Source: a plasmid. From it: a stretch of DNA of 39,282 nt. Below are positions 1-39,282 of the stretch, piece by piece. The first letter of the stretch is position 1. Each line of letters starts with the position of its first letter. The stretch lies in the sequence record NZ_CP023006.1, one strand, 5' to 3'. Made by a program: the position numbers and the translations under genes. The notes under the pieces were generated by a model that was not told the origin of the DNA, made no database searches, and was given only the letters and a program-made list of their open reading frames with translations.

Positions 1-3000
1 TGAAAAATCAGCCCGCTATTAATACAACAAAAATAGTATACCCACAAATATACGCTTATACGTTACCAACCGAGAAAGAAGATTTAGGGTGGATTAAAAT
101 TGGTTACACTGAACGTAAAAATGTTGATGATCGTATCAAAGAACAGACACATACGGCTGCCATTCGTTTAACATATTCCAAATTATGGTCAGAACCAGCC
201 AAGTTTGCTAAAAATGAGGGTTGGTTTAAAGATAAGCAATTTCATTCCTATTTGCGTCGTTATAAGAAAGTTAGTCAGCGTCAAGGAACTGAATGGTTCT
301 ATTATGATGGTCATCCGCAAAAATCACATCAAGATTTCATGGATTTTCGTAACAACCAGAAATCTCAAATTAAAGAACAGCTGACTTATCAGCTAAGACC
401 TGAGCAAGTTGCAGCAGTTCACCAAACGTTAGATTATGCCCATAATCATCCTAATAGCGAATTCTTGTGGAACGCAAAACCACGGTTTGGAAAAACTTTA
501 ACTACATATGATTTAGCTAGAAAATTAGATGCTAAAACTGTTTTAGTTGTGACTAATCGTCCTGCGGTTGCTAACTCTTGGTTTGATGATTTTGAAAAAT
601 TTATTTCTTGGCAAACTAGTTACGCTTTTATTTCGACTAATGATACTTTAAAAGATCGTCCAGTTTTAACAATAGACGAATTTAATAATGAACCATTTAG
701 TGGCAGTAAAAAAGACAAAATGATTACCTTTATTTCCTTACAAGATTTGAAGGGAGCAATTTCATTTGGTGGTAACTATGACAAGCTCAAATGGGTTAAA
801 GATTCACATTGGGATTTACTAGTTATTGATGAGAGTCATGAGGGAGTAGATACTTTTAAAACTGATATTGCTTTCAATAATATTAATCGTGACTTTACTT
901 TAAATTTATCTGGTACGCCCTTTAAAGCCGTTGCATCAGGAAAATTTAAACAAAATCAAATTTATAATTGGACTTATGCTGACGAACAACAGGCAAAAGC
1001 AAATTGGCATGATTCAGAAAAAAATAATCCTTATAGATCATTACCAAAGCTGAATCTGTTTTCTTATCAGATGAGTCCCATGATCACAGATGAAGTTAAT
1101 CAAGGAGCACAAATCAACGGAGATAATATTGACTATGCTTTTGATTTAAATGAATTTTTCGCAACCAACCAAAATGGCCATTTTATTCATGAAATGGATA
1201 TAAAAAAATGGTTAGATACCTTAACACATAACGAGAAATATCCATTCTCTACTAAAGAATTAAGGAATAAACTAAAGCATACTTTCTGGCTATTAAATCG
1301 TGTTGCCAGTGCTAAGGCGCTAGAAAAATTATTAAAAGAACATCCAGTTTTTAAAGATTATGAGATTATTTTAGCAGCTGGAGATGGGCATGGTTTTGAT
1401 GACGATCAGACCATTAATGAAAAATCACTTGATAAAGTTAAAAGAGAAATTAAAAAAAATGATAAAACTATAACGTTATCCGTTGGCCAATTGACGACTG
1501 GTGTGACTATTCCTGAGTGGACAGCCGTATTAGTATTATCTAACCTAAAATCACCCAGCCAATACATGCAAGCGGCATTTCGGGCACAAAATCCGTGGGA
1601 ACACATGGTTAATGGTCAAGTTTATCAAAAAGAAAATGCCTACGTTTTTGACTTTGCCCCTGAACGTACGTTAACTATTTATGATGAATTTGCTAACGAT
1701 TTATCAAAACAAACATCAAATGGTAACGGAACGACAAAGGACCGTGAGAAAAATATCGGGAGGTTATTGAACTTTTTCCCTGTAATTGCTGAAGATAAGC
1801 AAGGCAAGATGGTTGAATTAAACGTTAACCAGGTCCTAACTATTCCAAGAGCCATTAAAGCTCAAGAAGTAGTTCGACGTGGTTTTATGTCTAATTTGTT
1901 GTTTGCAAATATATCAGGAATTTTTGCTTCAGCAGGGGCACGAGAAATATTGGAACAATTAAATCCGGTTGACACTGGTAAAAAAGTTTCGCATAAGACT
2001 GAAAAGAAAATCGATACAAGAAATGTCAAAGTCAACGATAAGGGTGAAGTTGAAGTCAATCCAGAAATTGTTGTAGCTAAAACGTCGGCCCATTTTGGTG
2101 AGAAAGTTTACGGCGATATAACTGATAAAATCGAACAAGCGTCAAATCAAGATATCAATTTGGTCAAACTTACTTCAGATACATTCAAGAAAAAAACTTT
2201 AGCAGCAGCAAAGAATATTGCTAAAGAAAATGGTTTGACTGCTACAACAGCAGAACATATTATCCAGCAACATTCAAATTTTTTGGCGCGTGAAGTTCAA
2301 GTTATTCAAAAACAAAAGAATATAAAAGAAGCTCAAAATAAAGTAGATTTAAAGCAAGCTATTGAAAAATCTCAAGATAATCCTGAAGAAATTGCTAAAG
2401 CTCAGACAGCGTTTGAAAATAGAAAACAACAAATTGAAAGGGGGTATAAAGAAAAATTAACCAAAAAAGTTGCTGATCAGACAAAACAACTAACCAATCA
2501 AACAACTGAAACCTTGTTAAAAAAGGCAGAAGAAAAGAAGAAAAATACGGTTGAGGATGATATTCGAGCACGTTTGCGTGGCTTTGCTCGCACTATTCCT
2601 TCATTTTTGATGGCTTATGGTGCATCCACTACAGAACTAGCTAATTTTGATCAAAATATAAAAGGTGATGTTTTCAAAGAGGTAACAGGTATCACACTTG
2701 ATCAGTTCCGATCCTTACGCGATACGTATCATTTTTTCGATGAAACAACATTTAATGAATCCGTTCAAGAATTTTTAAGAAAAAGATCTCAACTTGCTAA
2801 TTATTTTGACGAATCACAAGATGAGGACATTTTTGATTATGTTCCAGCCCAGAAGACCAATCAAATATTTACTCCAAAGAGAGTCGTTAAATTGATGCTT
2901 GATAAGCTTGAAGAGGAAGAGCCTAACATCTTTAAAGACAAAAACAAAACTTTTGTTGATTTGTACGTTAAATCTGGATTGTATTTAACCGAAATCATCA

Positions 3001-4232
3001 AACGTCTTTATATTGGTCTGGAAGATCAAATACCTGAGTCAAATGAACGTTTGACTCATATCTTAGAAAAACAGATTTATGGTTTTGCTCCAAGCAATAT
3101 TATTTATAGCATTGCAAAGAACTTTGTTTTTTCACCCTTTCCAAATTTAGATAATTCACATTTAAAACAGTTAGATATGATTCCTTATGCCAAAAGAGAG
3201 AAGAGGCTGGATATGAAATTTGACGTAGTGGTGGGAAATCCACCTTATCAGGAAACAGCAAATGGTAAAAGTACTAAAGACGTTCCAGTTTATAATTACT
3301 TTTATGATTTAGCAGAAAGAGTTTCAACAAAATATATTTTAATTTCTCCAGCTCGTTTCTTATTTAATGCCGGCAGTACCGATAAAAAATGGAATAAGAA
3401 GATGCTTTCAAATAAACATATAAAGGTTGTTTTTTATGAGCAAGATGCAGCAAAGATTTTTCCAAATACCGATATTAAGGGTGGGATTGCTATCCTATAT
3501 AGAAATAAAGATAAAGATTTCGGAAACATTGGATTGTTTACTCCTTTTGAAGAATTAGATTCCATCTCTAATAAAGTATCTAAGTTGACATATCGGACAC
3601 TAGACGAAATTATTTCTAATCGTGGTCAATATAGATTTTCAGATTTAATTTACAAAGAATATCCGAATGATATGAAGAAAATTTCAGACAGAAGAATCGC
3701 TTCTAACGCGTTTAATAACCTCCCAAATTTATTTACAGAAAAAGAACCACACAATAAGTTCAATTATATAAGGATATTAGGTCGTTTAGACAATCAACGC
3801 ATTTATAGGTGGTTTAGGCGCGATTATTTACAAGAACCCATAACTTTTGAAAAATGGAAAATAATACTACCTAAAGCTAATGGAAGTGGGGCAATTGGAG
3901 AAGTATTAAGTACACCCCTAATCGGTAAACCCCTAATCGGGTTTACCGAGACTTTTATTTCAATTGGTGTTTTTGATAATAAGTTAGAAGCTCAAAATGC
4001 TCTAAAATATGTCCAAAGTAAATTTGCACGAACTATGCTGGGAATTTTAAAAATTACACAGGACAATCCAAAGGATAAGTGGTCAAAGGTTCCTCTTCAA
4101 GACTTCACACAAAATTCAGATATAGATTGGACTAAGTCAATATCTGATATTGATCAGCAACTTTATAAAAAATATGGACTAAATCAAAAAGAAATTAATT
4201 TTATTGAAAATAAAGTTAAATCAATGAATTAA
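1..4232 (+). CDS. Large multidomain protein, copy A: T5orf172/GIY-YIG-like N-domain + SF2 DExH helicase + coiled coil + gamma-class N6-adenine DNA methyltransferase + TRD-like C-terminus. 5'-partial at the window edge; the start codon G lies at base 39282.
   Basis: In frame from base 3 (aaa aat cag = KNQ), identical to the 1410-aa ORFs at 13094 and 26188. The six-frame track shows only the 252..4232 portion because the window boundary cuts the start codon. Confidence 0.9.
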   Translation, partial: KNQPAINTTKIVYPQIYAYTLPTEKEDLGWIKIGYTERKNVDDRIKEQTHTAAIRLTYSKLWSEPAKFAKNEGWFKDKQFHSYLRRYKKVSQRQGTEWFYYDGHPQKSHQDFMDFRNNQKSQIKEQLTYQLRPEQVAAVHQTLDYAHNHPNSEFLWNAKPRFGKTLTTYDLARKLDAKTVLVVTNRPAVANSWFDDFEKFISWQTSYAFISTNDTLKDRPVLTIDEFNNEPFSGSKKDKMITFISLQDLKGAISFGGNYDKLKWVKDSHWDLLVIDESHEGVDTFKTDIAFNNINRDFTLNLSGTPFKAVASGKFKQNQIYNWTYADEQQAKANWHDSEKNNPYRSLPKLNLFSYQMSPMITDEVNQGAQINGDNIDYAFDLNEFFATNQNGHFIHEMDIKKWLDTLTHNEKYPFSTKELRNKLKHTFWLLNRVASAKALEKLLKEHPVFKDYEIILAAGDGHGFDDDQTINEKSLDKVKREIKKNDKTITLSVGQLTTGVTIPEWTAVLVLSNLKSPSQYMQAAFRAQNPWEHMVNGQVYQKENAYVFDFAPERTLTIYDEFANDLSKQTSNGNGTTKDREKNIGRLLNFFPVIAEDKQGKMVELNVNQVLTIPRAIKAQEVVRRGFMSNLLFANISGIFASAGAREILEQLNPVDTGKKVSHKTEKKIDTRNVKVNDKGEVEVNPEIVVAKTSAHFGEKVYGDITDKIEQASNQDINLVKLTSDTFKKKTLAAAKNIAKENGLTATTAEHIIQQHSNFLAREVQVIQKQKNIKEAQNKVDLKQAIEKSQDNPEEIAKAQTAFENRKQQIERGYKEKLTKKVADQTKQLTNQTTETLLKKAEEKKKNTVEDDIRARLRGFARTIPSFLMAYGASTTELANFDQNIKGDVFKEVTGITLDQFRSLRDTYHFFDETTFNESVQEFLRKRSQLANYFDESQDEDIFDYVPAQKTNQIFTPKRVVKLMLDKLEEEEPNIFKDKNKTFVDLYVKSGLYLTEIIKRLYIGLEDQIPESNERLTHILEKQIYGFAPSNIIYSIAKNFVFSPFPNLDNSHLKQLDMIPYAKREKRLDMKFDVVVGNPPYQETANGKSTKDVPVYNYFYDLAERVSTKYILISPARFLFNAGSTDKKWNKKMLSNKHIKVVFYEQDAAKIFPNTDIKGGIAILYRNKDKDFGNIGLFTPFEELDSISNKVSKLTYRTLDEIISNRGQYRFSDLIYKEYPNDMKKISDRRIASNAFNNLPNLFTEKEPHNKFNYIRILGRLDNQRIYRWFRRDYLQEPITFEKWKIILPKANGSGAIGEVLSTPLIGKPLIGFTETFISIGVFDNKLEAQNALKYVQSKFARTMLGILKITQDNPKDKWSKVPLQDFTQNSDIDWTKSISDIDQQLYKKYGLNQKEINFIENKVKSMN

Positions 4233-4252
4233 AGGCCAATAAGGAGGAAAAA

Positions 4253-5230
4253 ATGAACTTTACAGAGAAAAAATTAAAGTCTTTCTCGATGCCACTCAGT
4301 GATACAGAAGATCAAAAATGTAAGCATGCTATTCAAGAAGTTAGAAATTCTATGGCTAACTTGGGATTTGAGGAGTCTTCTAATGGAATAACTCGTGTAT
4401 TTGACAATACTAGTTCCTATCAAACATTCATGAAAAATAATGAATCGGGCGAAAAAATCAAAATTTTTCTCCAGGGATCCTATGCAAATAATACTAATAT
4501 CAAAGCAGAAAGTGACGTTGATGTTGCTATAGTAAGAGAAGAAATTTTTAACACACTTTTTCGTAGTGAAGGAGTATACCCTCAAAATAATGAAACGTTT
4601 GGATTTTATAATGTACCACAAAAGCCAATAACATTTAAAGATCGTGTAGACACATGCTTAAGAGCTAGCTTTCACGAGCAAGTAATAAGACATAATAAGT
4701 CAATTAGGGTTTTGGGAAATAGTTACAGAAAAAATGCTGACACAGTCCCAGCTAATCGTTACAGAAACTATCAAGGAAACTATTCAAATGATCCTGAAGA
4801 CTATGTTGGAGGGATAATAATTAAACCAGATTATGGAACTTCTATAATTAATTATCCAGAACAACATATACGCATGGGAAGGCAGAAAAACATAGCAACA
4901 AATCATTTTTATAAAAAACAAGTTAGAATAATGAAAAGCATTAAAAACTTAATGACTGATGAGGGATATACATCCGCACAAAAAATGTCATCTTTTGGTT
5001 TGGAGTCATTAACTTGGAATATACCTGATAACATTTTCACTAAATATGACCAGCTAAGATTTGTTTTCGATGATATTGTTATCTATTTGACCGACCATGC
5101 AGATAATGTAGCTAACTTTAAAGAGGCAAATGGTATAAAAAGACTTTGTAATGATGAAAATCAAGTTACGGATTATCTAAACTTTATTTCGGATTTAAAA
5201 TCATTCTATGAATTTGAAATAGGAGATTAG
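4253..5230 (+). CDS. cGAS/DncV-like nucleotidyltransferase (SMODS / CD-NTase-like), 325 aa
   Basis: RBS AAGGAGG 7 nt upstream of the ATG. Motifs: Q74-G75-S76 (hQGS) then 11 residues then S87-D88-V-D90-V, i.e. the GS-x9-13-[DE]h[DE]h pol-beta NTase signature. Third carboxylate in A-D163-T-V-P-A (hDhVPA-type). The size and an inferred helical C-terminal half fit CD-NTase/SMODS and not a 100-140-aa MNT antitoxin. Confidence 0.75.
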   Translation: MNFTEKKLKSFSMPLSDTEDQKCKHAIQEVRNSMANLGFEESSNGITRVFDNTSSYQTFMKNNESGEKIKIFLQGSYANNTNIKAESDVDVAIVREEIFNTLFRSEGVYPQNNETFGFYNVPQKPITFKDRVDTCLRASFHEQVIRHNKSIRVLGNSYRKNADTVPANRYRNYQGNYSNDPEDYVGGIIIKPDYGTSIINYPEQHIRMGRQKNIATNHFYKKQVRIMKSIKNLMTDEGYTSAQKMSSFGLESLTWNIPDNIFTKYDQLRFVFDDIVIYLTDHADNVANFKEANGIKRLCNDENQVTDYLNFISDLKSFYEFEIGD

Positions 5231-5231
5231 A

Positions 5232-5792
5232 ATGAAAAGTGAAGAGAAAGGACTTATTAAATATAGTGTTACTATAGGAATTATTGTTTTTGTTGTTCTT
5301 TGTGTTACACATAATTTGAATATTAGACTAAATACATTGAAGTCTATTACGGATTACGCGGGAGATTCTATATCTATTAGTGTAATTTTTGCATTTTTTT
5401 ATGAAAAATATATTTGGCGTTGGAATCCATTTGAAAAACATCCGAGACTTGCTAAAAAATATTCTGGTTATCTTATTTCAACCTTTGATGATAAAAAAAG
5501 AACACTCGAACTAGACTTGAAACAAACTTTAATGACTTGCAAAGTACATCAAAAAACTGAAGAAAGCGACAGCGATGCAATTAATACAAATATAATAGAT
5601 ATAAATGGACGAAGTGCCCTTGTTTACACCTATTTAAATGTTCCAAGGCTAAATGTCCGAGAAAGAAGCCCTATACATTATGGAAGTGCTATTCTTTTTA
5701 TTAACAGTCAAGAAAAACTTAATGGAGGATACTTTACTGATAGGAAAACGACCGGTCAGATAACTGCTGAGAAAAAGATTAAACCGATTTAA
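5232..5792 (+). CDS. Two-TM effector protein (Cap15-like: 2 N-terminal TM helices + beta-rich C-terminal domain), 186 aa
   Basis: Start is 1 nt after the NTase stop, with RBS AGGAGA. TM1 is about aa 11-29 (YSVTIGIIVFVVLCVTHNL) and TM2 about aa 48-63 (ISISVIFAFFYEKYIW). The C-terminal about 120 aa has alternating hydrophobic patterns (beta-rich). Its position directly after a CD-NTase matches the type I CBASS effector slot. Confidence 0.6.
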   Translation: MKSEEKGLIKYSVTIGIIVFVVLCVTHNLNIRLNTLKSITDYAGDSISISVIFAFFYEKYIWRWNPFEKHPRLAKKYSGYLISTFDDKKRTLELDLKQTLMTCKVHQKTEESDSDAINTNIIDINGRSALVYTYLNVPRLNVRERSPIHYGSAILFINSQEKLNGGYFTDRKTTGQITAEKKIKPI

Positions 5793-5871
5793 GTAATAAC
5801 TTATAAAAAATTCATAATATTTAATTACATTAGGGGCCATAATTAACAAATACCCCCTTGAAAAGACCGAT

Positions 5872-5918
5872 AAAACAGCCCCTAACAAATCAACTTGGTT
5901 TGTTAGGGGCTGTTTTTT
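5872..5918. terminator. Strong bidirectional rho-independent terminator
   Basis: Perfect 18-bp stem aaaacagcccctaacaaa / tttgttaggggctgtttt with a 9-nt loop. Flanked by an A-run on the left and a T-run on the right. Lies 80 nt after the effector stop. Confidence 0.85.
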
Positions 5919-5984
5919 AGATTATACTTAAAATAACGCCTATAATGGTTGGATTCTAATGCTTAAAAAAGAGGTGACTAGGTT

Positions 5985-6257
5985 ATGGTGCAATAACTTG
6001 TTTTACCAATCAAAGATTCTAACGTCCTAACAAGTGTCCAGGAGACGCTGTTGGATAGTTTTCGAGCTGGTCGGCGTAATTACACCATTTTTCAACTGGG
6101 TAAAGCGACCTTACTACGGGTCAGTGATGTCATGCAGCTGAAAAAGGTTGATGTCTTTAACGCCGATGGTACGATTAAGCAAAATACGTTTATCCTCGAC
6201 CAAAAAACGGGTAAAGCTAACACTCTTTATCTCAAACCAGTGCAGACTGTATATTAA
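5985..6257 (+). pseudogene. Tyrosine recombinase pseudogene fragment (N-terminal about 90 codons only; premature TAA at codon 4, 3'-truncated)
   Basis: ATG at 5985 with RBS GAGGTGA. It reads M V Q * then LVLPIKDSNVLTSVQETLLDSFRAGRRNYTIFQLGKATLLRVSDVMQLKK..., which parallels the intact recombinase at 8433 (MQQVVLPIKDSNVLKEVQDTLLNNFKAGRRNYTVFQVGKATLLRVSDVMRLKQ...). It ends at KPVQTVY*, where it abuts the 3' end of the convergent mrr gene. About 70-75% nt identity to the intact copy. Confidence 0.8.
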
Positions 6258-7243
6258 TCTTTTGGAAATATTTTTTCATTGATAACAACGACTGTTTTTT
6301 CGCTAATGCCCATTCTATATTCAAATAATAAATCTACTAATTCATCACCATCAACTAAGGTAATTAAATTAGCTCCTTGACGCGATCTACTGACAGCATC
6401 ATTTGTATAGGTAGAAGTCGTTACAAATATCCCTCTGTCTGCATTATGACCACTAATGGTACCAGCAAAATTACTGATATCTGGTCCTGTAACCGGACCT
6501 TTTGTAAATCGCTTAGTTTGTAACACAATTTTATATGTCATCAACTCAGGGGTTCTTAAATAACCTATGCCATCAATGCCACTATCTCCTGTTTTTGAAG
6601 TGGTATCCATTTTAATGCCTATTTTTCGCATAAGATTTACAATCAATTCTTCAAACTTATATGGATTCATTTCACTCAATCGCTGTAATAATTGATCTCG
6701 CCATAATTCAGAATCATCTGTTTCTTCTACAATGTCTTCGTCCAGATTGGCAATATTGACATTTGAAGATGATAGTATTTCATCTTTCTTTTTTTGATTA
6801 TTTAGCTTCTTTTTTTGCCAAACAGGAGTAGATATTGAGTATACATCGTCCCATACATCAAAGTTATTTATATCAACGTCTTCTCCCATCTGTGTCAAGG
6901 CCCATACTCCCCACTGTGGTGAATAAAGTAATCCGGCTTTCTTTAAATTAGACATAGACCACTGCAATCTAAAATCTAACTGACTTTGACCATTACTAGA
7001 CTTTTTCTCTCTATCTGCATCTGTAAAATAAGGATATTCAACAGCCTTTTCTTTGACAAGAGCAGCTTTAGTTGGCCCCCCATAAGACTGTAATGCTTGT
7101 AAAATAGCCACTACACCAAACTTCTCCATATAGTTCAAGTTTTTATTAGAATTCACGAAGCTGAGCCAATTCTTAGGCATATCAGCTTCCAATTCTGTTA
7201 TTTTACGAGTGATTCCGAAATGATCATACGCTAAATCTACCAT
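6254..7243 (-). CDS. mrr: Mrr-family type IV (modification-dependent) restriction endonuclease
   Basis: C-terminal Mrr_cat-like region with TGDSGIDGIGY (the GDGGIDG-type motif) and an N-terminal winged-helix-like region. Preferred start is ATG at 7243 (rc), with AAGGATGG about 10 nt upstream and a minus-strand TATAAT -10 at 7274-7279. The tool's ORF extends to a GTG at 7282 that has no RBS. Confidence 0.8.
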   Translation of the reverse strand: MVDLAYDHFGITRKITELEADMPKNWLSFVNSNKNLNYMEKFGVVAILQALQSYGGPTKAALVKEKAVEYPYFTDADREKKSSNGQSQLDFRLQWSMSNLKKAGLLYSPQWGVWALTQMGEDVDINNFDVWDDVYSISTPVWQKKKLNNQKKKDEILSSSNVNIANLDEDIVEETDDSELWRDQLLQRLSEMNPYKFEELIVNLMRKIGIKMDTTSKTGDSGIDGIGYLRTPELMTYKIVLQTKRFTKGPVTGPDISNFAGTISGHNADRGIFVTTSTYTNDAVSRSRQGANLITLVDGDELVDLLFEYRMGISEKTVVVINEKIFPKD

Positions 7244-7655
7244 GTTTAATCCATCCTTATAAATTTTATTTTTATTATACACTTACGTTTACAGATTATT
7301 TTAATGTGGTTAAGCTGACACCAGCTTGCCCGACGCGGGTAGCGTTCTGCATGACATGCTCCCGATGAAATCGACCATGCAACGGTAAATTGCCCTGTCA
7401 CGGCGTGACCCGCCGGAGGTTTTACGAGCCGGATAATAGGCGCTGTAAAATAGCAGTTTTCCCAGAAGGAAGGGAAAACGCTACTGTAATCGCTTGTCGA
7501 TTACTTGCCTCGCAGAGCCTGTCCAAAATATTATTTTGGTATAACAGGCTATACCAGATTTTTAACGGTGTTATACTGGTCTTGGAAAACCTTTTTCGAG
7601 GAGGCATTTTTGATGGCGCATTTACAAAATCGCCCCTCAAAAATATTGAAAGAAT

Positions 7656-7700
7656 AACCCCTAATATCTATAATGCAGATATTAGGGGTTATTTATTTTC
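7656..7700. terminator. Bidirectional intrinsic terminator downstream of the toxin gene
   Basis: 14-bp stem aacccctaatatct / agatattaggggtt with a 7-nt loop and T-rich flanks on both strands. Lies 22 nt beyond the minus-strand toxin stop. Confidence 0.7.
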
Positions 7701-7721
7701 ATATTATAAAAATGACTTCTT

Positions 7722-8078
7722 CTATTCGTCATTTTTTCGATACCTTTTAGAACGATTTTGACCAGGAAATAAACGATCATGCGATCCGACTCGAATGCCA
7801 ATTAAGACTAGTTCATCTTTATCAATCGTATAAACCACCAGGACATCGTTAGTTTCGCTTGGTGTTTTGTTTTTCGGGGTATCTCGCAAGTGAAATTCAT
7901 TATAACCGCTCATTCGCCGATTAAGCTCATGATCTTCAAATTCTGGTGGTAATTGTTGTTGCTCAAGCAACAGGTCAATGGCTGCTCGAACTTCATTAAT
8001 AATAGATTTGTCTAAACTGGCTAACCGTTTTAGATCAGCATTAAAGGTTGCACGTGGTTTAAATCTTAGTTTTTTCAT
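7722..8078 (-). CDS. Type II toxin, RelE/ParE superfamily (YafQ/RelE-like mRNA interferase), 118 aa
   Basis: C-terminal VLVVYTIDKDELVLIGIRVGSHDRLF matches the RelE/YafQ-type ending (..LLIY.I.dd.L.L.RTGTHSDLF). The start ATG overlaps the antitoxin stop (TAATG). Gene order is antitoxin then toxin. Confidence 0.7.
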   Translation of the reverse strand: MKKLRFKPRATFNADLKRLASLDKSIINEVRAAIDLLLEQQQLPPEFEDHELNRRMSGYNEFHLRDTPKNKTPSETNDVLVVYTIDKDELVLIGIRVGSHDRLFPGQNRSKRYRKNDE

Positions 8079-9020: not shown

Positions 9021-9099
9021 TTTTATTTGGATTTTTAGTTGTTGCCGAAGGCAACTTCTGAGACAGATTTTAAGCACAAAACCTCCACTAATTTTTAGT

Positions 9100-10100: not shown

Positions 10101-10119
10101 ATTTTAATCTCGTACAGCG

Positions 10120-10345: not shown

Positions 10346-10369
10346 TAATATGTGTTTGAGGTGATAATC

Positions 10370-30420: not shown

Positions 30421-30440
30421 AGGCCAATAAGGAGGAAAAA

Positions 30441-31418
30441 ATGAACTTTACAGAGAAAAAATTAAAGTCTTTCTCGATGCCACTCAGTGATACAGAAGAT
30501 CAAAAATGTAAGCATGCTATTCAAGAAGTTAGAAATTCTATGGCTAACTTGGGATTTGAGGAGTCTTCTAATGGAATAACTCGTGTATTTGACAATACTA
30601 GTTCCTATCAAACATTCATGAAAAATAATGAATCGGGCGAAAAAATCAAAATTTTTCTCCAGGGATCCTATGCAAATAATACTAATATCAAAGCAGAAAG
30701 TGACGTTGATGTTGCTATAGTAAGAGAAGAAATTTTTAACACACTTTTTCGTAGTGAAGGAGTATACCCTCAAAATAATGAAACGTTTGGATTTTATAAT
30801 GTACCACAAAAGCCAATAACATTTAAAGATCGTGTAGACACATGCTTAAGAGCTAGCTTTCACGAGCAAGTAATAAGACATAATAAGTCAATTAGGGTTT
30901 TGGGAAATAGTTACAGAAAAAATGCTGACACAGTCCCAGCTAATCGTTACAGAAACTATCAAGGAAACTATTCAAATGATCCTGAAGACTATGTTGGAGG
31001 GATAATAATTAAACCAGATTATGGAACTTCTATAATTAATTATCCAGAACAACATATACGCATGGGAAGGCAGAAAAACATAGCAACAAATCATTTTTAT
31101 AAAAAACAAGTTAGAATAATGAAAAGCATTAAAAACTTAATGACTGATGAGGGATATACATCCGCACAAAAAATGTCATCTTTTGGTTTGGAGTCATTAA
31201 CTTGGAATATACCTGATAACATTTTCACTAAATATGACCAGCTAAGATTTGTTTTCGATGATATTGTTATCTATTTGACCGACCATGCAGATAATGTAGC
31301 TAACTTTAAAGAGGCAAATGGTATAAAAAGACTTTGTAATGATGAAAATCAAGTTACGGATTATCTAAACTTTATTTCGGATTTAAAATCATTCTATGAA
31401 TTTGAAATAGGAGATTAG
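30441..31418 (+). CDS. cGAS/DncV-like nucleotidyltransferase, copy C
   Basis: Identical to 4253..5230 (+26188). Confidence 0.75.
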   Translation: MNFTEKKLKSFSMPLSDTEDQKCKHAIQEVRNSMANLGFEESSNGITRVFDNTSSYQTFMKNNESGEKIKIFLQGSYANNTNIKAESDVDVAIVREEIFNTLFRSEGVYPQNNETFGFYNVPQKPITFKDRVDTCLRASFHEQVIRHNKSIRVLGNSYRKNADTVPANRYRNYQGNYSNDPEDYVGGIIIKPDYGTSIINYPEQHIRMGRQKNIATNHFYKKQVRIMKSIKNLMTDEGYTSAQKMSSFGLESLTWNIPDNIFTKYDQLRFVFDDIVIYLTDHADNVANFKEANGIKRLCNDENQVTDYLNFISDLKSFYEFEIGD

Positions 31419-31419
31419 A

Positions 31420-31980
31420 ATGAAAAGTGAAGAGAAAGGACTTATTAAATATAGTGTTACTATAGGAATTATTGTTTTTGTTGTTCTTTGTGTTACACAT
31501 AATTTGAATATTAGACTAAATACATTGAAGTCTATTACGGATTACGCGGGAGATTCTATATCTATTAGTGTAATTTTTGCATTTTTTTATGAAAAATATA
31601 TTTGGCGTTGGAATCCATTTGAAAAACATCCGAGACTTGCTAAAAAATATTCTGGTTATCTTATTTCAACCTTTGATGATAAAAAAAGAACACTCGAACT
31701 AGACTTGAAACAAACTTTAATGACTTGCAAAGTACATCAAAAAACTGAAGAAAGCGACAGCGATGCAATTAATACAAATATAATAGATATAAATGGACGA
31801 AGTGCCCTTGTTTACACCTATTTAAATGTTCCAAGGCTAAATGTCCGAGAAAGAAGCCCTATACATTATGGAAGTGCTATTCTTTTTATTAACAGTCAAG
31901 AAAAACTTAATGGAGGATACTTTACTGATAGGAAAACGACCGGTCAGATAACTGCTGAGAAAAAGATTAAACCGATTTAA
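31420..31980 (+). CDS. Two-TM Cap15-like effector, copy C
   Basis: Identical to 5232..5792 (+26188). Confidence 0.6.
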   Translation: MKSEEKGLIKYSVTIGIIVFVVLCVTHNLNIRLNTLKSITDYAGDSISISVIFAFFYEKYIWRWNPFEKHPRLAKKYSGYLISTFDDKKRTLELDLKQTLMTCKVHQKTEESDSDAINTNIIDINGRSALVYTYLNVPRLNVRERSPIHYGSAILFINSQEKLNGGYFTDRKTTGQITAEKKIKPI

Positions 31981-32172
31981 GTAATAACTTATAAAAAATT
32001 CATAATATTTAATTACATTAGGGGCCATAATTAACAAATACCCCCTTGAAAAGACCGATAAAACAGCCCCTAACAAATCAACTTGGTTTGTTAGGGGCTG
32101 TTTTTTAGATTATACTTAAAATAACGCCTATAATGGTTGGATTCTAATGCTTAAAAAAGAGGTGACTAGGTT

Positions 32173-32445
32173 ATGGTGCAATAACTTGTTTTACCAATCA
32201 AAGATTCTAACGTCCTAACAAGTGTCCAGGAGACGCTGTTGGATAGTTTTCGAGCTGGTCGGCGTAATTACACCATTTTTCAACTGGGTAAAGCGACCTT
32301 ACTACGGGTCAGTGATGTCATGCAGCTGAAAAAGGTTGATGTCTTTAACGCCGATGGTACGATTAAGCAAAATACGTTTATCCTCGACCAAAAAACGGGT
32401 AAAGCTAACACTCTTTATCTCAAACCAGTGCAGACTGTATATTAA
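32173..32445 (+). pseudogene. Tyrosine recombinase pseudogene fragment, copy C
   Basis: Identical to 5985..6257 (+26188). Confidence 0.8.
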
Positions 32446-33431
32446 TCTTTTGGAAATATTTTTTCATTGATAACAACGACTGTTTTTTCGCTAATGCCCA
32501 TTCTATATTCAAATAATAAATCTACTAATTCATCACCATCAACTAAGGTAATTAAATTAGCTCCTTGACGCGATCTACTGACAGCATCATTTGTATAGGT
32601 AGAAGTCGTTACAAATATCCCTCTGTCTGCATTATGACCACTAATGGTACCAGCAAAATTACTGATATCTGGTCCTGTAACCGGACCTTTTGTAAATCGC
32701 TTAGTTTGTAACACAATTTTATATGTCATCAACTCAGGGGTTCTTAAATAACCTATGCCATCAATGCCACTATCTCCTGTTTTTGAAGTGGTATCCATTT
32801 TAATGCCTATTTTTCGCATAAGATTTACAATCAATTCTTCAAACTTATATGGATTCATTTCACTCAATCGCTGTAATAATTGATCTCGCCATAATTCAGA
32901 ATCATCTGTTTCTTCTACAATGTCTTCGTCCAGATTGGCAATATTGACATTTGAAGATGATAGTATTTCATCTTTCTTTTTTTGATTATTTAGCTTCTTT
33001 TTTTGCCAAACAGGAGTAGATATTGAGTATACATCGTCCCATACATCAAAGTTATTTATATCAACGTCTTCTCCCATCTGTGTCAAGGCCCATACTCCCC
33101 ACTGTGGTGAATAAAGTAATCCGGCTTTCTTTAAATTAGACATAGACCACTGCAATCTAAAATCTAACTGACTTTGACCATTACTAGACTTTTTCTCTCT
33201 ATCTGCATCTGTAAAATAAGGATATTCAACAGCCTTTTCTTTGACAAGAGCAGCTTTAGTTGGCCCCCCATAAGACTGTAATGCTTGTAAAATAGCCACT
33301 ACACCAAACTTCTCCATATAGTTCAAGTTTTTATTAGAATTCACGAAGCTGAGCCAATTCTTAGGCATATCAGCTTCCAATTCTGTTATTTTACGAGTGA
33401 TTCCGAAATGATCATACGCTAAATCTACCAT
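32442..33431 (-). CDS. mrr: Mrr-family type IV restriction endonuclease, copy C
   Basis: Identical to 6254..7243 (+26188). Confidence 0.8.
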   Translation of the reverse strand: MVDLAYDHFGITRKITELEADMPKNWLSFVNSNKNLNYMEKFGVVAILQALQSYGGPTKAALVKEKAVEYPYFTDADREKKSSNGQSQLDFRLQWSMSNLKKAGLLYSPQWGVWALTQMGEDVDINNFDVWDDVYSISTPVWQKKKLNNQKKKDEILSSSNVNIANLDEDIVEETDDSELWRDQLLQRLSEMNPYKFEELIVNLMRKIGIKMDTTSKTGDSGIDGIGYLRTPELMTYKIVLQTKRFTKGPVTGPDISNFAGTISGHNADRGIFVTTSTYTNDAVSRSRQGANLITLVDGDELVDLLFEYRMGISEKTVVVINEKIFPKD

Positions 33432-33909
33432 GTTTAATCCATCCTTATAAATTTTATTTTTATTATACACTTACGTTTACAGATTATTTTAATGTGGTTA
33501 AGCTGACACCAGCTTGCCCGACGCGGGTAGCGTTCTGCATGACATGCTCCCGATGAAATCGACCATGCAACGGTAAATTGCCCTGTCACGGCGTGACCCG
33601 CCGGAGGTTTTACGAGCCGGATAATAGGCGCTGTAAAATAGCAGTTTTCCCAGAAGGAAGGGAAAACGCTACTGTAATCGCTTGTCGATTACTTGCCTCG
33701 CAGAGCCTGTCCAAAATATTATTTTGGTATAACAGGCTATACCAGATTTTTAACGGTGTTATACTGGTCTTGGAAAACCTTTTTCGAGGAGGCATTTTTG
33801 ATGGCGCATTTACAAAATCGCCCCTCAAAAATATTGAAAGAATAACCCCTAATATCTATAATGCAGATATTAGGGGTTATTTATTTTCATATTATAAAAA
33901 TGACTTCTT

Positions 33910-34266
33910 CTATTCGTCATTTTTTCGATACCTTTTAGAACGATTTTGACCAGGAAATAAACGATCATGCGATCCGACTCGAATGCCAATTAAGACTAGT
34001 TCATCTTTATCAATCGTATAAACCACCAGGACATCGTTAGTTTCGCTTGGTGTTTTGTTTTTCGGGGTATCTCGCAAGTGAAATTCATTATAACCGCTCA
34101 TTCGCCGATTAAGCTCATGATCTTCAAATTCTGGTGGTAATTGTTGTTGCTCAAGCAACAGGTCAATGGCTGCTCGAACTTCATTAATAATAGATTTGTC
34201 TAAACTGGCTAACCGTTTTAGATCAGCATTAAAGGTTGCACGTGGTTTAAATCTTAGTTTTTTCAT
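33910..34266 (-). CDS. RelE/YafQ-like toxin, copy C
   Basis: Identical to 7722..8078 (+26188). Confidence 0.7.
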   Translation of the reverse strand: MKKLRFKPRATFNADLKRLASLDKSIINEVRAAIDLLLEQQQLPPEFEDHELNRRMSGYNEFHLRDTPKNKTPSETNDVLVVYTIDKDELVLIGIRVGSHDRLFPGQNRSKRYRKNDE

Positions 34267-34553
34267 TATTTAAACTGGCCCCAATAATCATCATCTGATT
34301 CAACAATTTCATCGTCAGGTAAAACATGGCGTTTAATTAACTGATCACGTGCAATTGCATATTCTAACGAACCTTCTTTAGCTTTTAATGCTCTTTCTAG
34401 CCACTCCATTTTTTCTTGTGAAACAATGGCTACTGCGCGACTATTTGAACGAGCAATATAAACGGTTTCGTCTTCGTCATTAACTTGATCTAAATATTTT
34501 TTTAGGTTAGCGCGAAAATCGCTCTGTGTTAATGCTAATGTCATATTTACCAC
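34266..34553 (-). CDS. Phd/YefM antitoxin, copy C
   Basis: Identical to 8078..8365 (+26188). Confidence 0.75.
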   Translation of the reverse strand: MVNMTLALTQSDFRANLKKYLDQVNDEDETVYIARSNSRAVAIVSQEKMEWLERALKAKEGSLEYAIARDQLIKRHVLPDDEIVESDDDYWGQFK

Positions 34554-34620
34554 CCTTTCATTGTACTTAATATTGTACTTTAATTTGTACTAAAAATCAA
34601 TTTTTTAAGGAGCTAAAACT

Positions 34621-35208
34621 ATGCAACAAGTTGTCTTACCCATCAAAGATTCAAACGTTCTCAAAGAGGTGCAAGATACCTTACTCAACAACTTTAAAGC
34701 TGGCCGGCGTAACTATACAGTTTTTCAAGTTGGCAAAGCAACACTGTTGCGAGTCAGTGATGTCATGCGCTTAAAACAAACCGATATTTTTAATCCGGAC
34801 GGTTCTATTAAACAAAATGCGTTTATTCATGACCGAAAAACGGGTAAACCGAATACCTTGTACCTTAAACCTGTTCAAACAGAGCTCTTATTGTACCGTC
34901 AATGGCTGCTTGATCATAAACTGGATTCTGAATGGCTCTTTCCTTCAATTCAACACCCAGAACGCCATATCACGGAAAAACAGTTCTACAAAATTATGAG
35001 TAAGGTTGGCGATCTTTTAAGCATTAATTATCTAGGTACTCATACGATGCGCAAAACTGGGGCTTATCGTGTTTACACGCAATCAAATTACAATATTGGT
35101 TTAGTCATGCACTTATTAAATCATTCAAGTGAAGCCATGACTTTAGCTTATTTAGGCTTAGACCAAGCCAGTACCGAAACGATGTTAGATCAAATTGATT
35201 TTGGTTAG
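34621..35208 (+). CDS. Short tyrosine recombinase, copy C
   Basis: Identical to 8433..9020 (+26188). Confidence 0.85.
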   Translation: MQQVVLPIKDSNVLKEVQDTLLNNFKAGRRNYTVFQVGKATLLRVSDVMRLKQTDIFNPDGSIKQNAFIHDRKTGKPNTLYLKPVQTELLLYRQWLLDHKLDSEWLFPSIQHPERHITEKQFYKIMSKVGDLLSINYLGTHTMRKTGAYRVYTQSNYNIGLVMHLLNHSSEAMTLAYLGLDQASTETMLDQIDFG

Positions 35209-35624
35209 TTTTATTTGGATTTTTAGTTGTTGCCGAAGGCAACTTCTGAGACAGATTTTAAGCACAAAACCTCCACTAATTTTTAGTGGCGTGTAAGTGC
35301 GCCTTGACCGAGATTTGCTCGGTTTGCGGACTCACATAGATGTTCTATGTGTAAGTGCGCATTAAACTCATTTCATTCCGTTTAATGACGCTAAAAAATA
35401 GCTAACTTGATCATTAAAATAAAAGGTTTTTTTAGTTCAATGCGCATTTACACGTCAACTAACTTTGACGTGTTTCGATACCCCAAAAATTGTATTAGAT
35501 TTCGCTGCGCTCAAACAAATCTTTTTAATTGCTTTACACCGTTTTTCTTTCTAAACTTAATCACAATCTTTGAATAACTAACTATAAAAAGATGCCTTTA
35601 ATTTAAACCTGAAATAATTAGCTA

Positions 35625-35837
35625 ATGTTAGGAGTCATTAAGCTGGACGAAAAGAAAGTATTAAAACCAATTGATGAAATGCTTGCTGATCCTTGGCAAG
35701 TTGATATTCAAGAATTGTTTGAAGCTTCTGTCAATGAACCTGACGAGATCAAAAGGAATTTGTATGATTCCCTATATACTTATATTTTACAAAAAAGACA
35801 AGAAGATATTATTAATCGTCCTGGCTTTGCTATTTAG
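35625..35837 (+). CDS. Hypothetical 70-aa protein, copy C
   Basis: Identical to 9437..9649 (+26188). Confidence 0.3.
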   Translation: MLGVIKLDEKKVLKPIDEMLADPWQVDIQELFEASVNEPDEIKRNLYDSLYTYILQKRQEDIINRPGFAI

Positions 35838-36307
35838 TCCTCTAAAAGCTCACTGAGGGCTTTTTATTTTTGCTTTGGTGTAAATGTATATGAATAGTCT
35901 TAAAATCGCTGAGAACAAAAAATAAGGCCCTTAAAAAGTGACATAGCAGTTAAATCTTTATCAAGTTTTAGAAAAGCTAACTGTTTGCTGTCAATGGTAG
36001 CGGACGAGCAAAGCGTGGGAGCATAAGGAATTGACAGCTCTTAACTAGTCTTAACACTGAATTGGCGAAAGCCAAAGTTTCTATAAAACTTTGCTTTCCT
36101 GCCTAACGGCGAGTGAAAAAGCGGTCAAGCTGGCTCAGCTTGGATGGGGTTCGGGGCGTTAGCGCCCGATTAAATGTGGCTTGCCACACCTTTTTAGGCA
36201 ACGAACGAAGTGAGGCGCAAGAAGCGTAGCGACTGGAGTTTAATGTGAGCCGGTTTTTGGCTCACTCCTTTGTGTTTTTTGTTTCTAGATTTTAATCTCG
36301 TACAGCG

Positions 36308-36533
36308 GTGCCTCTTATATACCTCTTTTATAAACCTCTTTTAAACCTCTTTTAGACCCCTCTTGAGCCTTACTCTCCCAAGGCTCACAGAAGGTTATCA
36401 AGTACCTTTTGTCTGTTTATCAAGTACCTTTTGTCTGTTTATCAAGTACCTTTTGTCTGTTTATCAAGTACCTTTTGTCTGTTTATCAAGTACCTTTATA
36501 AGTTCTGTACTTGATAAAAAGGTACTTTTATTT
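36308..36533. repeat. Replication origin (short DRs + 22-bp iterons), copy C
   Basis: Identical to 10120..10345 (+26188). Confidence 0.85.
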
Positions 36534-36557
36534 TAATATGTGTTTGAGGTGATAATC

Positions 36558-37493
36558 ATGTCTAATGAGTTAGTTAAGTATGATCCTGAGTTGAATACTA
36601 TTCCCTTGAGAAAATTTACCCCAATTGAGATGAATTTATTTTTTTCAATTGTTTCCCGCATGCGGGATCAAGGGAATAAAACTGTTCGTTTCTCTTTTGA
36701 CCAGTTAAAAGAGCTTAGTAACTATAAACCAACCGCAAATAAACGTTTTATTGATGATATTGAAAATACATACCAAAAGATCCTCAGCCTTAGGTTTGGC
36801 CGTAGAAGTAAGAGTGGCTTAAATCGTGAATTTTTTGTTATGTTTACTGAATTTGAAATTAAAGGTGAAGCTGAAGAACCTTATGTTGATATTCAGGTTT
36901 ATCCCAAAGCATTGCACTTGCTAAACGATTTAGAAAGTTGGGTTCGTTATGCCCTAACAGAATTTAGAAATTTAAAAAGCAGTTACGCTAAAACAATGTT
37001 TCGTCTAATTAAGCAATTTCGAACTACTGGCTATTCTTATTTCTCTAAAGAAGATTTTTTTGAATTGCTTGATATACCTAAAAGTTATTGGAATAGTCCT
37101 TCAAATGTTGACAAAAAGGTTATTAAGCCAATTAGAGAAGAATTAACCCCGCTTTTTAGAGGGCTAACGATTAGAAAAAAATATGGTAAAGGCAGAGGAA
37201 AACCAGTTATCGGTTATTCTTTTACTTGGAAACCTGAAAGCAAGGACGCAAATGATTTTTCTCAAGGCAAATTTCAAGATGAGCGTCAAAAACTCTTTAA
37301 CATTCAACACAATGATGAATTATCAGATAAAGAAAAGTGGCGTGCAATTGACAAAGTTAAATGCTTGCCTTTAGGAACAACTGAAAAACAGGTACTGGCT
37401 GAAAAACAAGCTGAACATGATCAAAAAATCAGAGATCAAGCAAGACAAGAAGCACTTGCTGAACTCCGAAAGGGGCTTGGAAATAATGCCTAA
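36558..37493 (+). CDS. repB: RepB replication initiator, copy C
   Basis: Identical to 10370..11305 (+26188). Confidence 0.85.
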   Translation: MSNELVKYDPELNTIPLRKFTPIEMNLFFSIVSRMRDQGNKTVRFSFDQLKELSNYKPTANKRFIDDIENTYQKILSLRFGRRSKSGLNREFFVMFTEFEIKGEAEEPYVDIQVYPKALHLLNDLESWVRYALTEFRNLKSSYAKTMFRLIKQFRTTGYSYFSKEDFFELLDIPKSYWNSPSNVDKKVIKPIREELTPLFRGLTIRKKYGKGRGKPVIGYSFTWKPESKDANDFSQGKFQDERQKLFNIQHNDELSDKEKWRAIDKVKCLPLGTTEKQVLAEKQAEHDQKIRDQARQEALAELRKGLGNNA

Positions 37494-37763
37494 AACAATT
37501 AGAGAACTTGCTGATGAATTTGGTGTATCAAAACAAGCCATTAGGGAAAAAATAGATGCAAACTTTAGTTGTTGTTAATTCGGGATATTTGCTGTTAAAG
37601 CAACATTCATTGGTGGCAACAACCAGAACCAAATCAATTATATTTTAGCTTGAAGATTGATACCTAGTTTAAAAAACGACAAGAACGACAACCAAGTTTA
37701 AGCTTTGCTTGTCGATTGGTGTTCTTGTCGTTTTTAACTTATAATTTAAGGCGGATTAATTAG

Positions 37764-38327
37764 GTGGTGAAACTATTGGGCAAGACTATTCGACAACTTT
37801 CAGAAGAATTGAAATTATCAAAACAAGGTATTAATCAACGTATTAATAGTATTAATGGCTTTCGAAGCAAACACACTTATAAAGTCAAAAACCATCTAGA
37901 AATAGACAACCAAGGCGTTAAAATGCTTGCTAATTTCGACAAGCAAAAACGACAAGAACGACAACCAAATCGGCAAGCTGAAAACGACAAGGACAAAAAT
38001 ATTGATCATATCTTGCTAAAACAACTTGATGTTAAAGATCAACAAATTTCCAAATTACAAAAGTCCTTGGATCAGCAGCAACAACTACAGTTAGCGACAC
38101 TTGCCGAAAATCGTCAACTAAAGAACCATATTCAAGAATTGAGTGGTCTTCTTGAATCTTCTAATTCAATTCAAAAACGACAAGTAACCAAGAAAAATGA
38201 CAACTTTCCGAACAATGATAATTCCAGTCATATCAAGGATAAAAATGGTGTTGTCGGTACTGATGAAAAACAAAAGAAAATACATAAAAATAAAACCAAT
38301 AAGAGTTGGTGGCATTTTTGGAAATAA
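37764..38327 (+). CDS. OrfX-like HTH/coiled-coil protein, copy C
   Basis: Identical to 11576..12139 (+26188). Confidence 0.65.
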   Translation: MVKLLGKTIRQLSEELKLSKQGINQRINSINGFRSKHTYKVKNHLEIDNQGVKMLANFDKQKRQERQPNRQAENDKDKNIDHILLKQLDVKDQQISKLQKSLDQQQQLQLATLAENRQLKNHIQELSGLLESSNSIQKRQVTKKNDNFPNNDNSSHIKDKNGVVGTDEKQKKIHKNKTNKSWWHFWK

Positions 38328-38364
38328 ATTTCAGAGCAGTTATCAAAACTTTGGAGGGGTATCC

Positions 38365-39279
38365 TTGAAAGAAGACCACAAACAATCAAGCGAGAATCTG
38401 AGCTCTAACGATATTCATGAAAATATAATAAGAAAATATATGCCTGATATTCTGAATATTTTACTTATTGATAGAACAACAAGCACAGCTAATGGTACTC
38501 ATAATATAATTTGGGCAAATAAGAATTATCTAAAGTATGATTCCAAAAGATATGCTATGACAGCGGAAATCAAGCCCGAACTAATCACGGGACTTATGGA
38601 AGGCATTATTCGTCCAAGAGCGTTAAAAACTAAAGAGATTCAAAAAAGACGGACTAAATCGAAAGCCGAGGTTTTTACACCAACTTGGATAGTAAAAAAA
38701 CAGAATGATGAAGTTGACAATGATTTTGCCAACGATGATTTAGAAACTTACGTAAAGCGAACCTGGCTTGAGATTACTTGCGGGGAAGCTCCTTATATGA
38801 CAACTAGATATGATATGGACACCGGGAAAACTATTCCTATTGCTAAGCGTGTTGGATTCATTGATCGAAAGCTAGCTCGCATCAATAAGGAAGTTGACGG
38901 TAAATTGGAATGGCAACGGCTGGTTGAAGAATCTTATAAATCCAGCTATGGTTTTGAATGGAATGGGGATTCACTGCTATTAGCGCGTGAAAACTTGCTT
39001 TATACTTACCGTGATAATTTTTTGATTAAGTGGCATACAGAGCCAACTCTAATTTTGCTTAGATCAATTGCTAAAATCATTAGTTACAATGTTTTTCAAA
39101 TGGATGGCTTAAAATATACAATTCCTTTGACTGAAAGAAAAGAAAAAAAGATTGATCCACAAATGTCATTGTTTGAAGATTATAGTGATGAGAAGTGGAT
39201 AGTTAAGCCTGGAAAACGTGTAAAAATAATGAATTGGGAAAAAAATAAAATGGAATTTTTTGATCAAGGAGTGAAATAA
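38365..39279 (+). CDS. Hypothetical 304-aa protein, copy C
   Basis: Identical to 12177..13091 (+26188). Confidence 0.6.
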   Translation: MKEDHKQSSENLSSNDIHENIIRKYMPDILNILLIDRTTSTANGTHNIIWANKNYLKYDSKRYAMTAEIKPELITGLMEGIIRPRALKTKEIQKRRTKSKAEVFTPTWIVKKQNDEVDNDFANDDLETYVKRTWLEITCGEAPYMTTRYDMDTGKTIPIAKRVGFIDRKLARINKEVDGKLEWQRLVEESYKSSYGFEWNGDSLLLARENLLYTYRDNFLIKWHTEPTLILLRSIAKIISYNVFQMDGLKYTIPLTERKEKKIDPQMSLFEDYSDEKWIVKPGKRVKIMNWEKNKMEFFDQGVK

Positions 39280-39282
39280 GTG

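Follow-up and report, generated by a model that had tools for sequence, protein, structure and literature searches.

A 39,282-bp plasmid record composed of three exact copies of a 13,094-bp Rep_3 plasmid

The plasmid sequence analysed here (the whole stretch of 39,282 bp, hereafter the window) raises the question of whether a plasmid of this size exists in a cell, or whether a smaller plasmid has been written more than once. We approached this question through the geometry of the record, the completeness and relatives of its repeated unit, and the alternative ways in which multiple copies can come about.

Exact triplication and the geometry of the record

The window measures exactly 3 × 13,094 bp (3.000 units), and when its thirds were compared pairwise (a–b, a–c and b–c) we counted 0 mismatches in each comparison, which confirms the claim of an earlier note on this DNA that the three unit copies are identical. 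A SNP or indel distinguishing the copies, which that note had named beforehand as a refutation, occurs nowhere among the 3 × 13,094 bp. The length of 13,094 bp is the smallest exact period across the window, exact on one strand, and the period search detected no sub-period inside the unit. The window is written in A, C, G and T only (no N), with a GC content of 34.2%, and it is made of whole units only, with no flanking non-repeat DNA. A perfect 13-kb repeat cannot have arisen by chance, and the unique sequence is limited to one 13.1-kb unit, as had been proposed. An old tandem array with stable inheritance, such as a larger replicon would contain after taking up the plasmid in triplicate, would account for the tandem structure itself and nothing more, and the recombinase/toxin–antitoxin module of the unit does occur within ~3-Mb chromosomes. 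Such an array should display divergence between its copies and unique flanks; we found zero substitutions or indels and no non-repeat flanks, by which this explanation is effectively refuted already and its probability is close to nil.

The unit boundary splits the GTG (13094–13096) of the 1410-aa ORF, the largest of the unit, between bases 1 and 2 (the sequence reads AAGGAGTGAAATAAGTG up to the boundary and TGAAAAATCAG from there on), exactly where the earlier note had located the junction. As the cut leaves copy 1 without the initial G of this GTG, its version of the ORF is called only from a downstream TTG (252..4232). For arbitrary linear ends, the chance of an exact integer number of units is about 8e-5 (about 1/13,094), and the record was therefore either closed as a circle or deliberately concatenated. 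A start point that lies 1 nt into the GTG of the largest gene has a chance of about 3e-4. The integer length and the gene-start cut point to a circularised and, as we infer, software-rotated record, and the position of the cut would be as expected from software that moves the origin of a circular contig to the start of a CDS and makes a 0/1-based slip. Dnaapler would offer rotation to a CDS start or to the 'largest CDS'. A natural end shared with three PLSDB relatives was also considered and rejected: those records start elsewhere, and rotated pieces had been joined in the rows of the match table.

The junction is native contiguous sequence, i.e., an ordinary circular closure and not a novel joint. 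A 46-mer that spans it has an exact match in eight independent short-read contigs, and the joint is therefore nothing special; one of these eight contigs is identical to the window over 13000–18940. A search with the 46-mer in viral, genome and metagenome collections did not recover the source contig. Over the 5.9–6.1 kb compared, we observed no indels against independent short-read contigs (one being identical over 5.9 kb, another differing by 2 SNPs), and thus the bases themselves carry no long-read signature.

Table 1 Features of the window, with gene coordinates given on the second unit copy
Feature	Position	Strand	Remarks
Unit copy 1	1..13094	.	Identical to copies 2 and 3; its largest gene is cut and lacks the initial G of the GTG
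Unit copy 2	13095..26188	.	Reference copy for feature coordinates; +/-13,094 for copies 3/1
Unit copy 3	26189..39282	.	Final G (39282) opens the GTG that continues at position 1 if circular
Unit junction 13094/13095 within the GTG start codon	13092..13096	+	Repeated at 26188/26189
Restriction-modification fusion, 1410 aa	13094..17326	+	T5orf172 N-terminal, ResIII helicase, N6-adenine/Eco57I-type methylase
CBASS oligonucleotide cyclase (CD-NTase), 325 aa	17347..18324	+	PADLOC Cyclase 4.6e-86; Pfam NTP_transf_2
CBASS effector, Cap15-type two-transmembrane, 186 aa	18326..18886	+	Pfam Cap15_CD_rec 1.5e-15; PADLOC 2TM effector 8e-54
1,778-bp segment absent from closest relative	18944..20721	.	Recombinase gene fragment, Mrr, mobV-upstream region
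Terminator-like hairpin, 22-nt arms, after CBASS operon	18966..19010	.	
Second tyrosine recombinase gene, fragment	19083..19341	+	71% identical to 21528-21786
Mrr-family (Type IV) restriction endonuclease, 342 aa	19348..20376	-	Pfam Mrr_cat 1.4e-26 and Mrr_N; PADLOC mREase_IV
GC-rich non-coding stretch	20395..20720	.	Homologous to sequence that immediately precedes mobV relaxase genes
17-7-17 perfect inverted repeat past yafQ	20747..20787	.	Best read as a bidirectional terminator
YafQ-family toxin, 118 aa	20816..21172	-	
Phd/YefM-family antitoxin, 95 aa	21172..21459	-	
Tyrosine recombinase, 195 aa	21527..22114	+	Presumed multimer resolvase
Rfam RF01691 'Bacillus-plasmid RNA' motif	22893..22953	+	70.7 bits vs gathering score 31
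Replication origin region	23217..23403	.	11-13-bp repeats (CCTCTTTTAAA-type, 23217-23270) and 4.7 x 22-bp perfect iterons (23301-23403); immediately 5' of rep
Rep_3-family replication initiator, 317 aa	23446..24399	+	Pfam Rep3_N 2.3e-26, Rep3_C 4e-10
DUF536 protein, 187 aa	24670..25233	+	Usual rep neighbour in such plasmids
Companion gene of the restriction fusion	25265..26185	+	PADLOC MTase_II 5e-72; no Pfam match

The unit as a replicon and its monomeric relatives

A single unit is a complete replicon, with one origin, one rep gene, a toxin–antitoxin pair and a recombinase (Table 1). BamHI, KpnI, NdeI, BglII, ClaI and MluI each have one site in it. The plasmid is a Rep_3 iteron-type theta plasmid of Lactobacillaceae: its Rep_3 initiator contains both WH1 and WH2, tandem iterons lie upstream of rep (the 22-bp iterons end 43 bp before the gene), and its DNA is similar to plasmids typed as rep_cluster_1229, among them the two relatives described below. 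Altogether 771 PLSDB records match, mostly from Lactiplantibacillus, Leuconostoc and Pediococcus, while the exact Rep protein (311-aa form) had no match on record. Judging from family membership, the Rep_3 protein would bind the 22-bp iterons and thereby start theta replication, and daughter cells that fail to inherit the plasmid would be killed through the YafQ/Phd pair; the small tyrosine recombinase probably serves to maintain the monomeric form.

The earlier note had described this recombinase together with a res-like site. The first part held, as the gene is intact (Pfam Phage_integrase 2e-17) and its product carries HxxR at 141–144 and a C-terminal Tyr177; for the second, we identified no res site near the gene, and multimer resolution is a presumed role. 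The identical 195-aa protein is widespread (609 index blocks), and a PDB sequence search with it returned no meaningful match. Between the antitoxin and recombinase genes lie 12-bp TTGTAC repeats, which we take to resemble Phd/YefM-type operator repeats. The 17-7-17 inverted repeat was evaluated as a res site and rejected: it reads best as a terminator hairpin, since its pairing is kept by compensatory arm changes in relatives and T-runs follow on both strands.

The closest relatives are 10–12 kb monomers with a gene order in common with the unit. Lactiplantibacillus plantarum LZ206p3 (NZ_CP015969.1, 11,652 bp, rep_cluster_1229) aligns over 84% of the unit with an identity of 94.7%, rising to 98.6% in the restriction/CBASS block, and shares its gene order and backbone (rep/DUF536, the companion gene and 1410-aa fusion, CD-NTase and Cap15, and YafQ). 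It was deposited as a monomer and lacks the 1,778-bp Mrr segment (18944–20721 of the window), and about 19 indels break up its large gene, which is annotated as many short CDS; the genes of the window, by contrast, are all intact. Pediococcus pentosaceus pRS5 (NC_012031.1, 10,153 bp), also a monomer and also typed as rep_cluster_1229, reaches only 63% coverage at 86% identity; it shares the order Rep_3, DUF536, companion, a 1417-aa 'Eco57I restriction-modification methylase domain' protein, YafQ/Phd and a 195-aa site-specific integrase, and it has neither CBASS nor Mrr. This plasmid is described as theta-type (Alegre et al. 2009, as cited in PMC4490491). A phage origin of the unit was rejected, the only match being one of 178 bp to a single Lactobacillus phage.

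How the three copies may have come to be written

From priors and the geometry of the record, we infer that the window represents a single circular theta plasmid of 13,094 bp from a Lactobacillaceae host that was written three times, most likely in silico, and we regard this explanation as probable. Of its expected marks, we found head-to-tail copies without divergence, a unit that by itself is a complete autonomous replicon with an ordinary circular closure, and signs of processing (the integer unit count and the non-random start). Two routes may have led there: a long-read assembler could have closed the circular path only after three turns round the small plasmid, with polishing then removing any differences between the copies; alternatively, data handling could have multiplied the circular sequence. 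Software would then have opened the circle at the beginning of the largest gene, off by one base.

The assertion that long-read assembly yields plasmid concatemers is documented (PMC10589936, PMC6966772, PMC11165638). Flye/metaFlye plasmid concatemers are mostly <25 kb and lack raw-read support (PMC10589936), contigs roughly twice as long as the plasmid (about 200%) have been reported (PMC6966772), and in long-read-first assembly circularised plasmid contigs were found 'duplicated or multiplicated' (PMC11165638). Tripled references are in addition standard practice for circular alignment (PMC6966772). The window resembles the products of such assemblers (Flye/metaFlye, Canu and others) in that successive identical copies of a small circular plasmid (<25 kb) form one, often circularised, contig; it differs in having three copies, whereas the assembler concatemers are mostly doublings and tripling is covered only by the term 'multiplicated'. 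Rolling-circle (phi29) amplification before long-read sequencing, followed by assembly, was suggested in the earlier note and would likewise give identical head-to-tail copies. However, the ends and lengths of such physical concatemers are arbitrary, so that exactly 3.000 units would still need circular closure or trimming, and the window, with its period exact on one strand, shows no trace of the hyperbranching chimeras or inversions that characterise amplified libraries; we consider an in vitro origin very improbable.

A different possibility is a genuine covalent 39.3-kb head-to-tail trimer, produced by homologous recombination or failed resolution, present as the dominant form or in a subpopulation, and assembled correctly from its long reads as a circular trimer. 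Plasmid multimers are real and accumulate in recA+ hosts, where nanopore read lengths correspond to whole multiples of the plasmid as large as hexamers (PMC12012879), and a trimer formed recently would have copies without differences and a length of exactly three units. The window is like natural multimers (ColE1 cer/XerCD; recA+ E. coli, PMC12012879) in being composed of identical head-to-tail whole-plasmid copies. Natural multimers are expected to be resolved by a plasmid-encoded or host tyrosine recombinase, and the window plasmid encodes one; in comparison with ColE1 cer/XerCD-type systems, this recombinase is short (195 aa) and the multimer putative. The presumed nature of its resolution role, together with the empty res-site search, speaks for a trimer, but the missing or defective resolution function that would mark a genuine multimer was not seen, as the recombinase ORF (a presumed resolvase) is intact and its exact sequence widely conserved. 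Partition genes are absent from the plasmid, which relies on its toxin–antitoxin pair, and by the established reasoning of the 'dimer catastrophe' multimers should thus be counter-selected. The deposition of the relatives as monomers also argues against a trimer, as does the fact that assemblers make concatemers even without read support (PMC10589936). On this evidence we judge a genuine trimer unlikely. It would be known biology, making a modest point on multimer resolution in theta plasmids of lactic acid bacteria and adding no new element.

Identical copies and an integer length are equally expected of a real trimer that has been assembled and circularised, an observation that counts against an artefact.

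That the 39.3-kb trimer is the real and stably maintained form of the plasmid in its host, despite the intact tyrosine recombinase, seems to us decidedly improbable: with an intact recombinase gene whose exact product is widespread, a stable unresolved trimer is unexpected. It could persist, for example, if the recombinase had a role other than multimer resolution or if its target site had disappeared; three defence systems would then be present at triple dosage, with three iteron origins per molecule. If, as is probable, a single plasmid was written three times in silico, the record taken at face value inflates threefold the size (39.3 vs 13.1 kb), the gene, defence-system and origin counts, and the copy-number/dosage estimates, and if left uncollapsed it will seed spurious 'large plasmid' clusters in databases. 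For curation, the record should be collapsed to a single 13,094-bp circle.

Defence cargo and the Mrr segment

The rest of the plasmid would be anti-phage cargo. The C-terminal region of the 1410-aa fusion matches a Type IIG model, while a PDB sequence search with this protein gave no meaningful match. The stop codon of its companion gene lies 3 nt upstream of the fusion gene start; the companion ORF is open from 25103, and its annotated lengths in relatives range from 279 to 306 aa. Downstream of the fusion, the CD-NTase gene is followed by that of the effector, whose match is to a Cap15 cyclic-dinucleotide receptor domain, in the two-gene layout of type I CBASS with a Cap15 effector, and a CD_NTase_C domain was found on a protein identical to the 325-aa cyclase. 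Cap2/Cap3 or HORMA genes do not occur beside the pair, which lies between the restriction gene and a terminator. Domain content and gene order lead us to predict a CBASS with a Cap15 effector.

The 1,778-bp segment that holds the Mrr gene lies between two copies of an imperfect ~20-bp direct repeat. At its GC-rich non-coding stretch (20395–20720) we found neither a relaxase gene nor an Rfam match. A new structured RNA was considered here and rejected, as the 92–94% identity to the mobV-upstream region explains the stretch, which would be a putative orphan region of the transfer-origin type.

Exact repetition and the unit junction

The 39,282 bases of the window (GC 34.2%, 0 ambiguous bases) amount to exactly 3 × 13,094, and in pairwise comparison the thirds match at every position. 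The smallest exact period over the whole window was 13,094, and no sub-period was found inside the 13,094-bp unit. The claim of the earlier note that the window consists of exactly three identical unit lengths, with a single 13.1-kb unit of unique sequence, was thus borne out (0 differing positions, 13,094 bp unique); an old tandem array is scarcely credible.

The boundary between units (between 13094 and 13095, and again between 26188 and 26189) reads ...AAGGAGTGAAATAAGTG before and TGAAAAATC... after the junction. As had also been noticed earlier, it lies within the GTG start codon (13094-13096) of the largest open reading frame (ORF), which encodes a 1410-aa restriction-modification fusion protein, and separates the first base of the codon from the second. 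Because of this cut, copy 1 of the ORF is one base short, and an ORF finder places it at 252..4232 from a downstream TTG. Short-read (Logan) contigs encoding the identical 1410-aa protein cross the junction uninterrupted, from the companion gene (the ORF just before the fusion gene) into the fusion gene. A junction-spanning 46-mer had an exact match in 8 of the Logan contigs fetched, and no match in viral, genome and metagenome contig collections. The contig from DRR741456 equals the window base for base from 13000 to 18940, and that from SRR26413871 differs from it by two SNPs. Since the junction is contiguous in independent short-read contigs, the boundary is a mere opening point of a circle or tandem, and no novel joint. 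The exact window sequence at full length was found in no PLSDB record.

Origin of the three copies

An artefact and a real trimer both predict identical copies, and therefore the sequence alone has no power to separate them; we nevertheless consider it probable that the copies arose in silico, by the assembler or during data handling. If the ends of a contig were arbitrary, its length would hit an exact unit multiple with a probability of about 1/13,094, whereas in the overlap graph of a circular molecule every closed path is a whole number of turns. The exact integer length implies that the record was closed as a circle, or else purposely concatenated. The record opens one base into the GTG of the largest gene, where a random cut would fall with a probability of about 3e-4; we infer that rotation software slipping between 0- and 1-based coordinates would produce such a start. 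Flye and metaFlye are documented to produce plasmid concatemers, mostly from plasmids under 25 kb, that raw reads do not support (PMC10589936). Contigs of ~200% of plasmid length have been obtained from several assemblers, and tripling a circular reference for alignment is a standard trick (PMC6966772), while 'duplicated or multiplicated' circularised plasmid contigs are described from long-read-first pipelines (PMC11165638); the earlier statement that long-read assembly yields plasmid concatemers is in line with this literature. In-vitro rolling-circle amplification is a distinctly improbable source of the copies.

Real trimer molecules in the host are unlikely, even though recA+ hosts do form real multimers, which show up in long-read lengths as integer multiples (PMC12012879). 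Partition genes are absent from the plasmid, so multimers should be costly; moreover, the ORF of its 195-aa tyrosine recombinase is intact, with HxxR at 141-144 and Tyr177, and the identical protein is widespread, always adjoining Phd/YafQ, although its role as a resolvase is one that we infer. Neither candidate source of the triplication is new: an artefact of assembly or handling is familiar, and so is plasmid multimerisation, the less likely of the two. With only 13,094 bp of unique sequence present, as the earlier note concluded, the record is best collapsed to one circle.

A res-like site, which that note had proposed, could not be confirmed. The most site-like element is a perfect inverted repeat (17-7-17) at 20747-20787. 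In relatives, both of its arms change in ways that keep the pairing (CCCCTAATATCT/AGATATTAGGGG vs CCCCCAACATCT/AGATGTTGGGGG), and T-runs follow it on both strands, so that its behaviour is that of a terminator hairpin. Three 12-bp repeats containing TTGTAC, which seem to resemble Phd/YefM-type operators, lie in the intergenic region upstream of the recombinase gene.

Gene content and relatives of the unit

By its gene content, one unit is a complete small plasmid, with one origin, one rep gene and a coding fraction of ~82%.

Features of one unit, with coordinates in the second copy
Feature	Coordinates	Strand	Evidence or description
Restriction fusion, 1410 aa	13094-17326		T5orf172, ResIII helicase and N6-adenine/Eco57I methylase domains
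CBASS cyclase	17347-18324		PADLOC 4.6e-86
CBASS Cap15 effector	18326-18886		Second gene of two-gene CBASS
Mrr, type IV restriction endonuclease	19348-20376	minus	
YafQ/Phd toxin-antitoxin	20816-21459	minus	
Tyrosine recombinase, 195 aa	21527-22114		
Rfam RF01691 'Bacillus-plasmid RNA' motif	22893-22953	plus	70.7 bits vs gathering score 31
Origin	23217-23403		11-13-bp repeats and 4.7 perfect 22-bp iterons
Rep_3 initiator	23446-24399		
DUF536 gene	24670-25233		
Companion gene	about 25265-26185		PADLOC MTase_II methyltransferase model, 5e-72

The N-terminus of the fusion is T5orf172 (weak, E 6e-4), not a PD-(D/E)XK nuclease. A PDB sequence search gave no relative of the fusion; its family is present in 91 PLSDB records, with 'Eco57I restriction-modification methylase domain-containing protein' as the sole annotation. 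The companion gene ends 3 nt before the fusion start. Its ORF (25103-26185) matched no Pfam or NCBIfam family and showed no obvious NPPY-type catalytic motif when inspected by eye. Where it starts is ambiguous, the options giving 360, 306 or 279 aa, and the longest of these forms overlaps the DUF536 gene. Together with the fusion and the Cap15-type CBASS, the companion gene forms one ~7-kb block (25265-26185, 13094-18886), which recurs with the same layout and an identical cyclase protein in at least 23 short-read contigs with differing flanks. Counting this block, Mrr and YafQ/Phd, defence or addiction cargo makes up most of the 13-kb plasmid. The RF01691 match is full-length and falls in the interval that separates the recombinase gene from the origin.

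The unit shares DNA with 771 PLSDB plasmids, nearly all from Lactiplantibacillus, Leuconostoc, Pediococcus and related Lactobacillaceae; a phage relationship was ruled out, the sole match being 178 bp. The best match was LZ206p3 of Lactiplantibacillus plantarum LZ206 (NZ_CP015969.1; 11,652 bp, 84% coverage, 94.7% identity, gene order as in the unit), followed by pRS5 of Pediococcus pentosaceus (NC_012031.1; 10,153 bp). Both are typed rep_cluster_1229 and are monomers as deposited, whereas the window holds three copies. The unit adds a new mosaic to this well-known plasmid group. Compared with the window, LZ206p3 (4130-10897) has ~19 indels that break up the large restriction gene and the CBASS cyclase into many short CDS; this points to sequencing errors left uncorrected in that record and not to real pseudogenes.

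The Mrr segment and a GC-rich non-coding stretch

LZ206p3 and one short-read (Logan) contig lack a 1,778-bp segment (18944-20721) that is flanked by imperfect direct repeats of ~20 bp (ACAAATACCCCCTTGAAAAG / ACAAAATCGCCCCTCAAAAAT). The segment contains a fragment of a recombinase gene, Mrr and a GC-rich mobV-upstream region. In other contigs the Mrr gene, at >99% identity, adjoins many different defence genes, and the segment resembles a cassette that has been swapped at a conserved boundary. The fragment (19083-19341) is a truncated second copy of the recombinase gene 5' end, 71% identical to 21528-21786, and encodes a 68-aa remnant. The identical 195-aa recombinase and its Phd/YafQ neighbours also occur within ~3-Mb chromosomes, amid IS elements and heavy-metal or ABC transporter genes, at loci that look like integrated plasmid-derived islands.

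Upstream of Mrr lies a GC-rich, non-coding stretch of ~325 bp (20395-20720, also 7301-7626 and 33489-33814). Leuconostoc and Weissella plasmids have a counterpart of it, at 92-94% identity, immediately ahead of their mobV relaxase genes, and as single-stranded DNA the stretch folds strongly (z = -5.4). It is not accompanied by a relaxase gene and is probably an orphan region of transfer-origin or single-strand-origin type that could allow mobilisation in trans. A 123-aa ORF over this stretch looks spurious.
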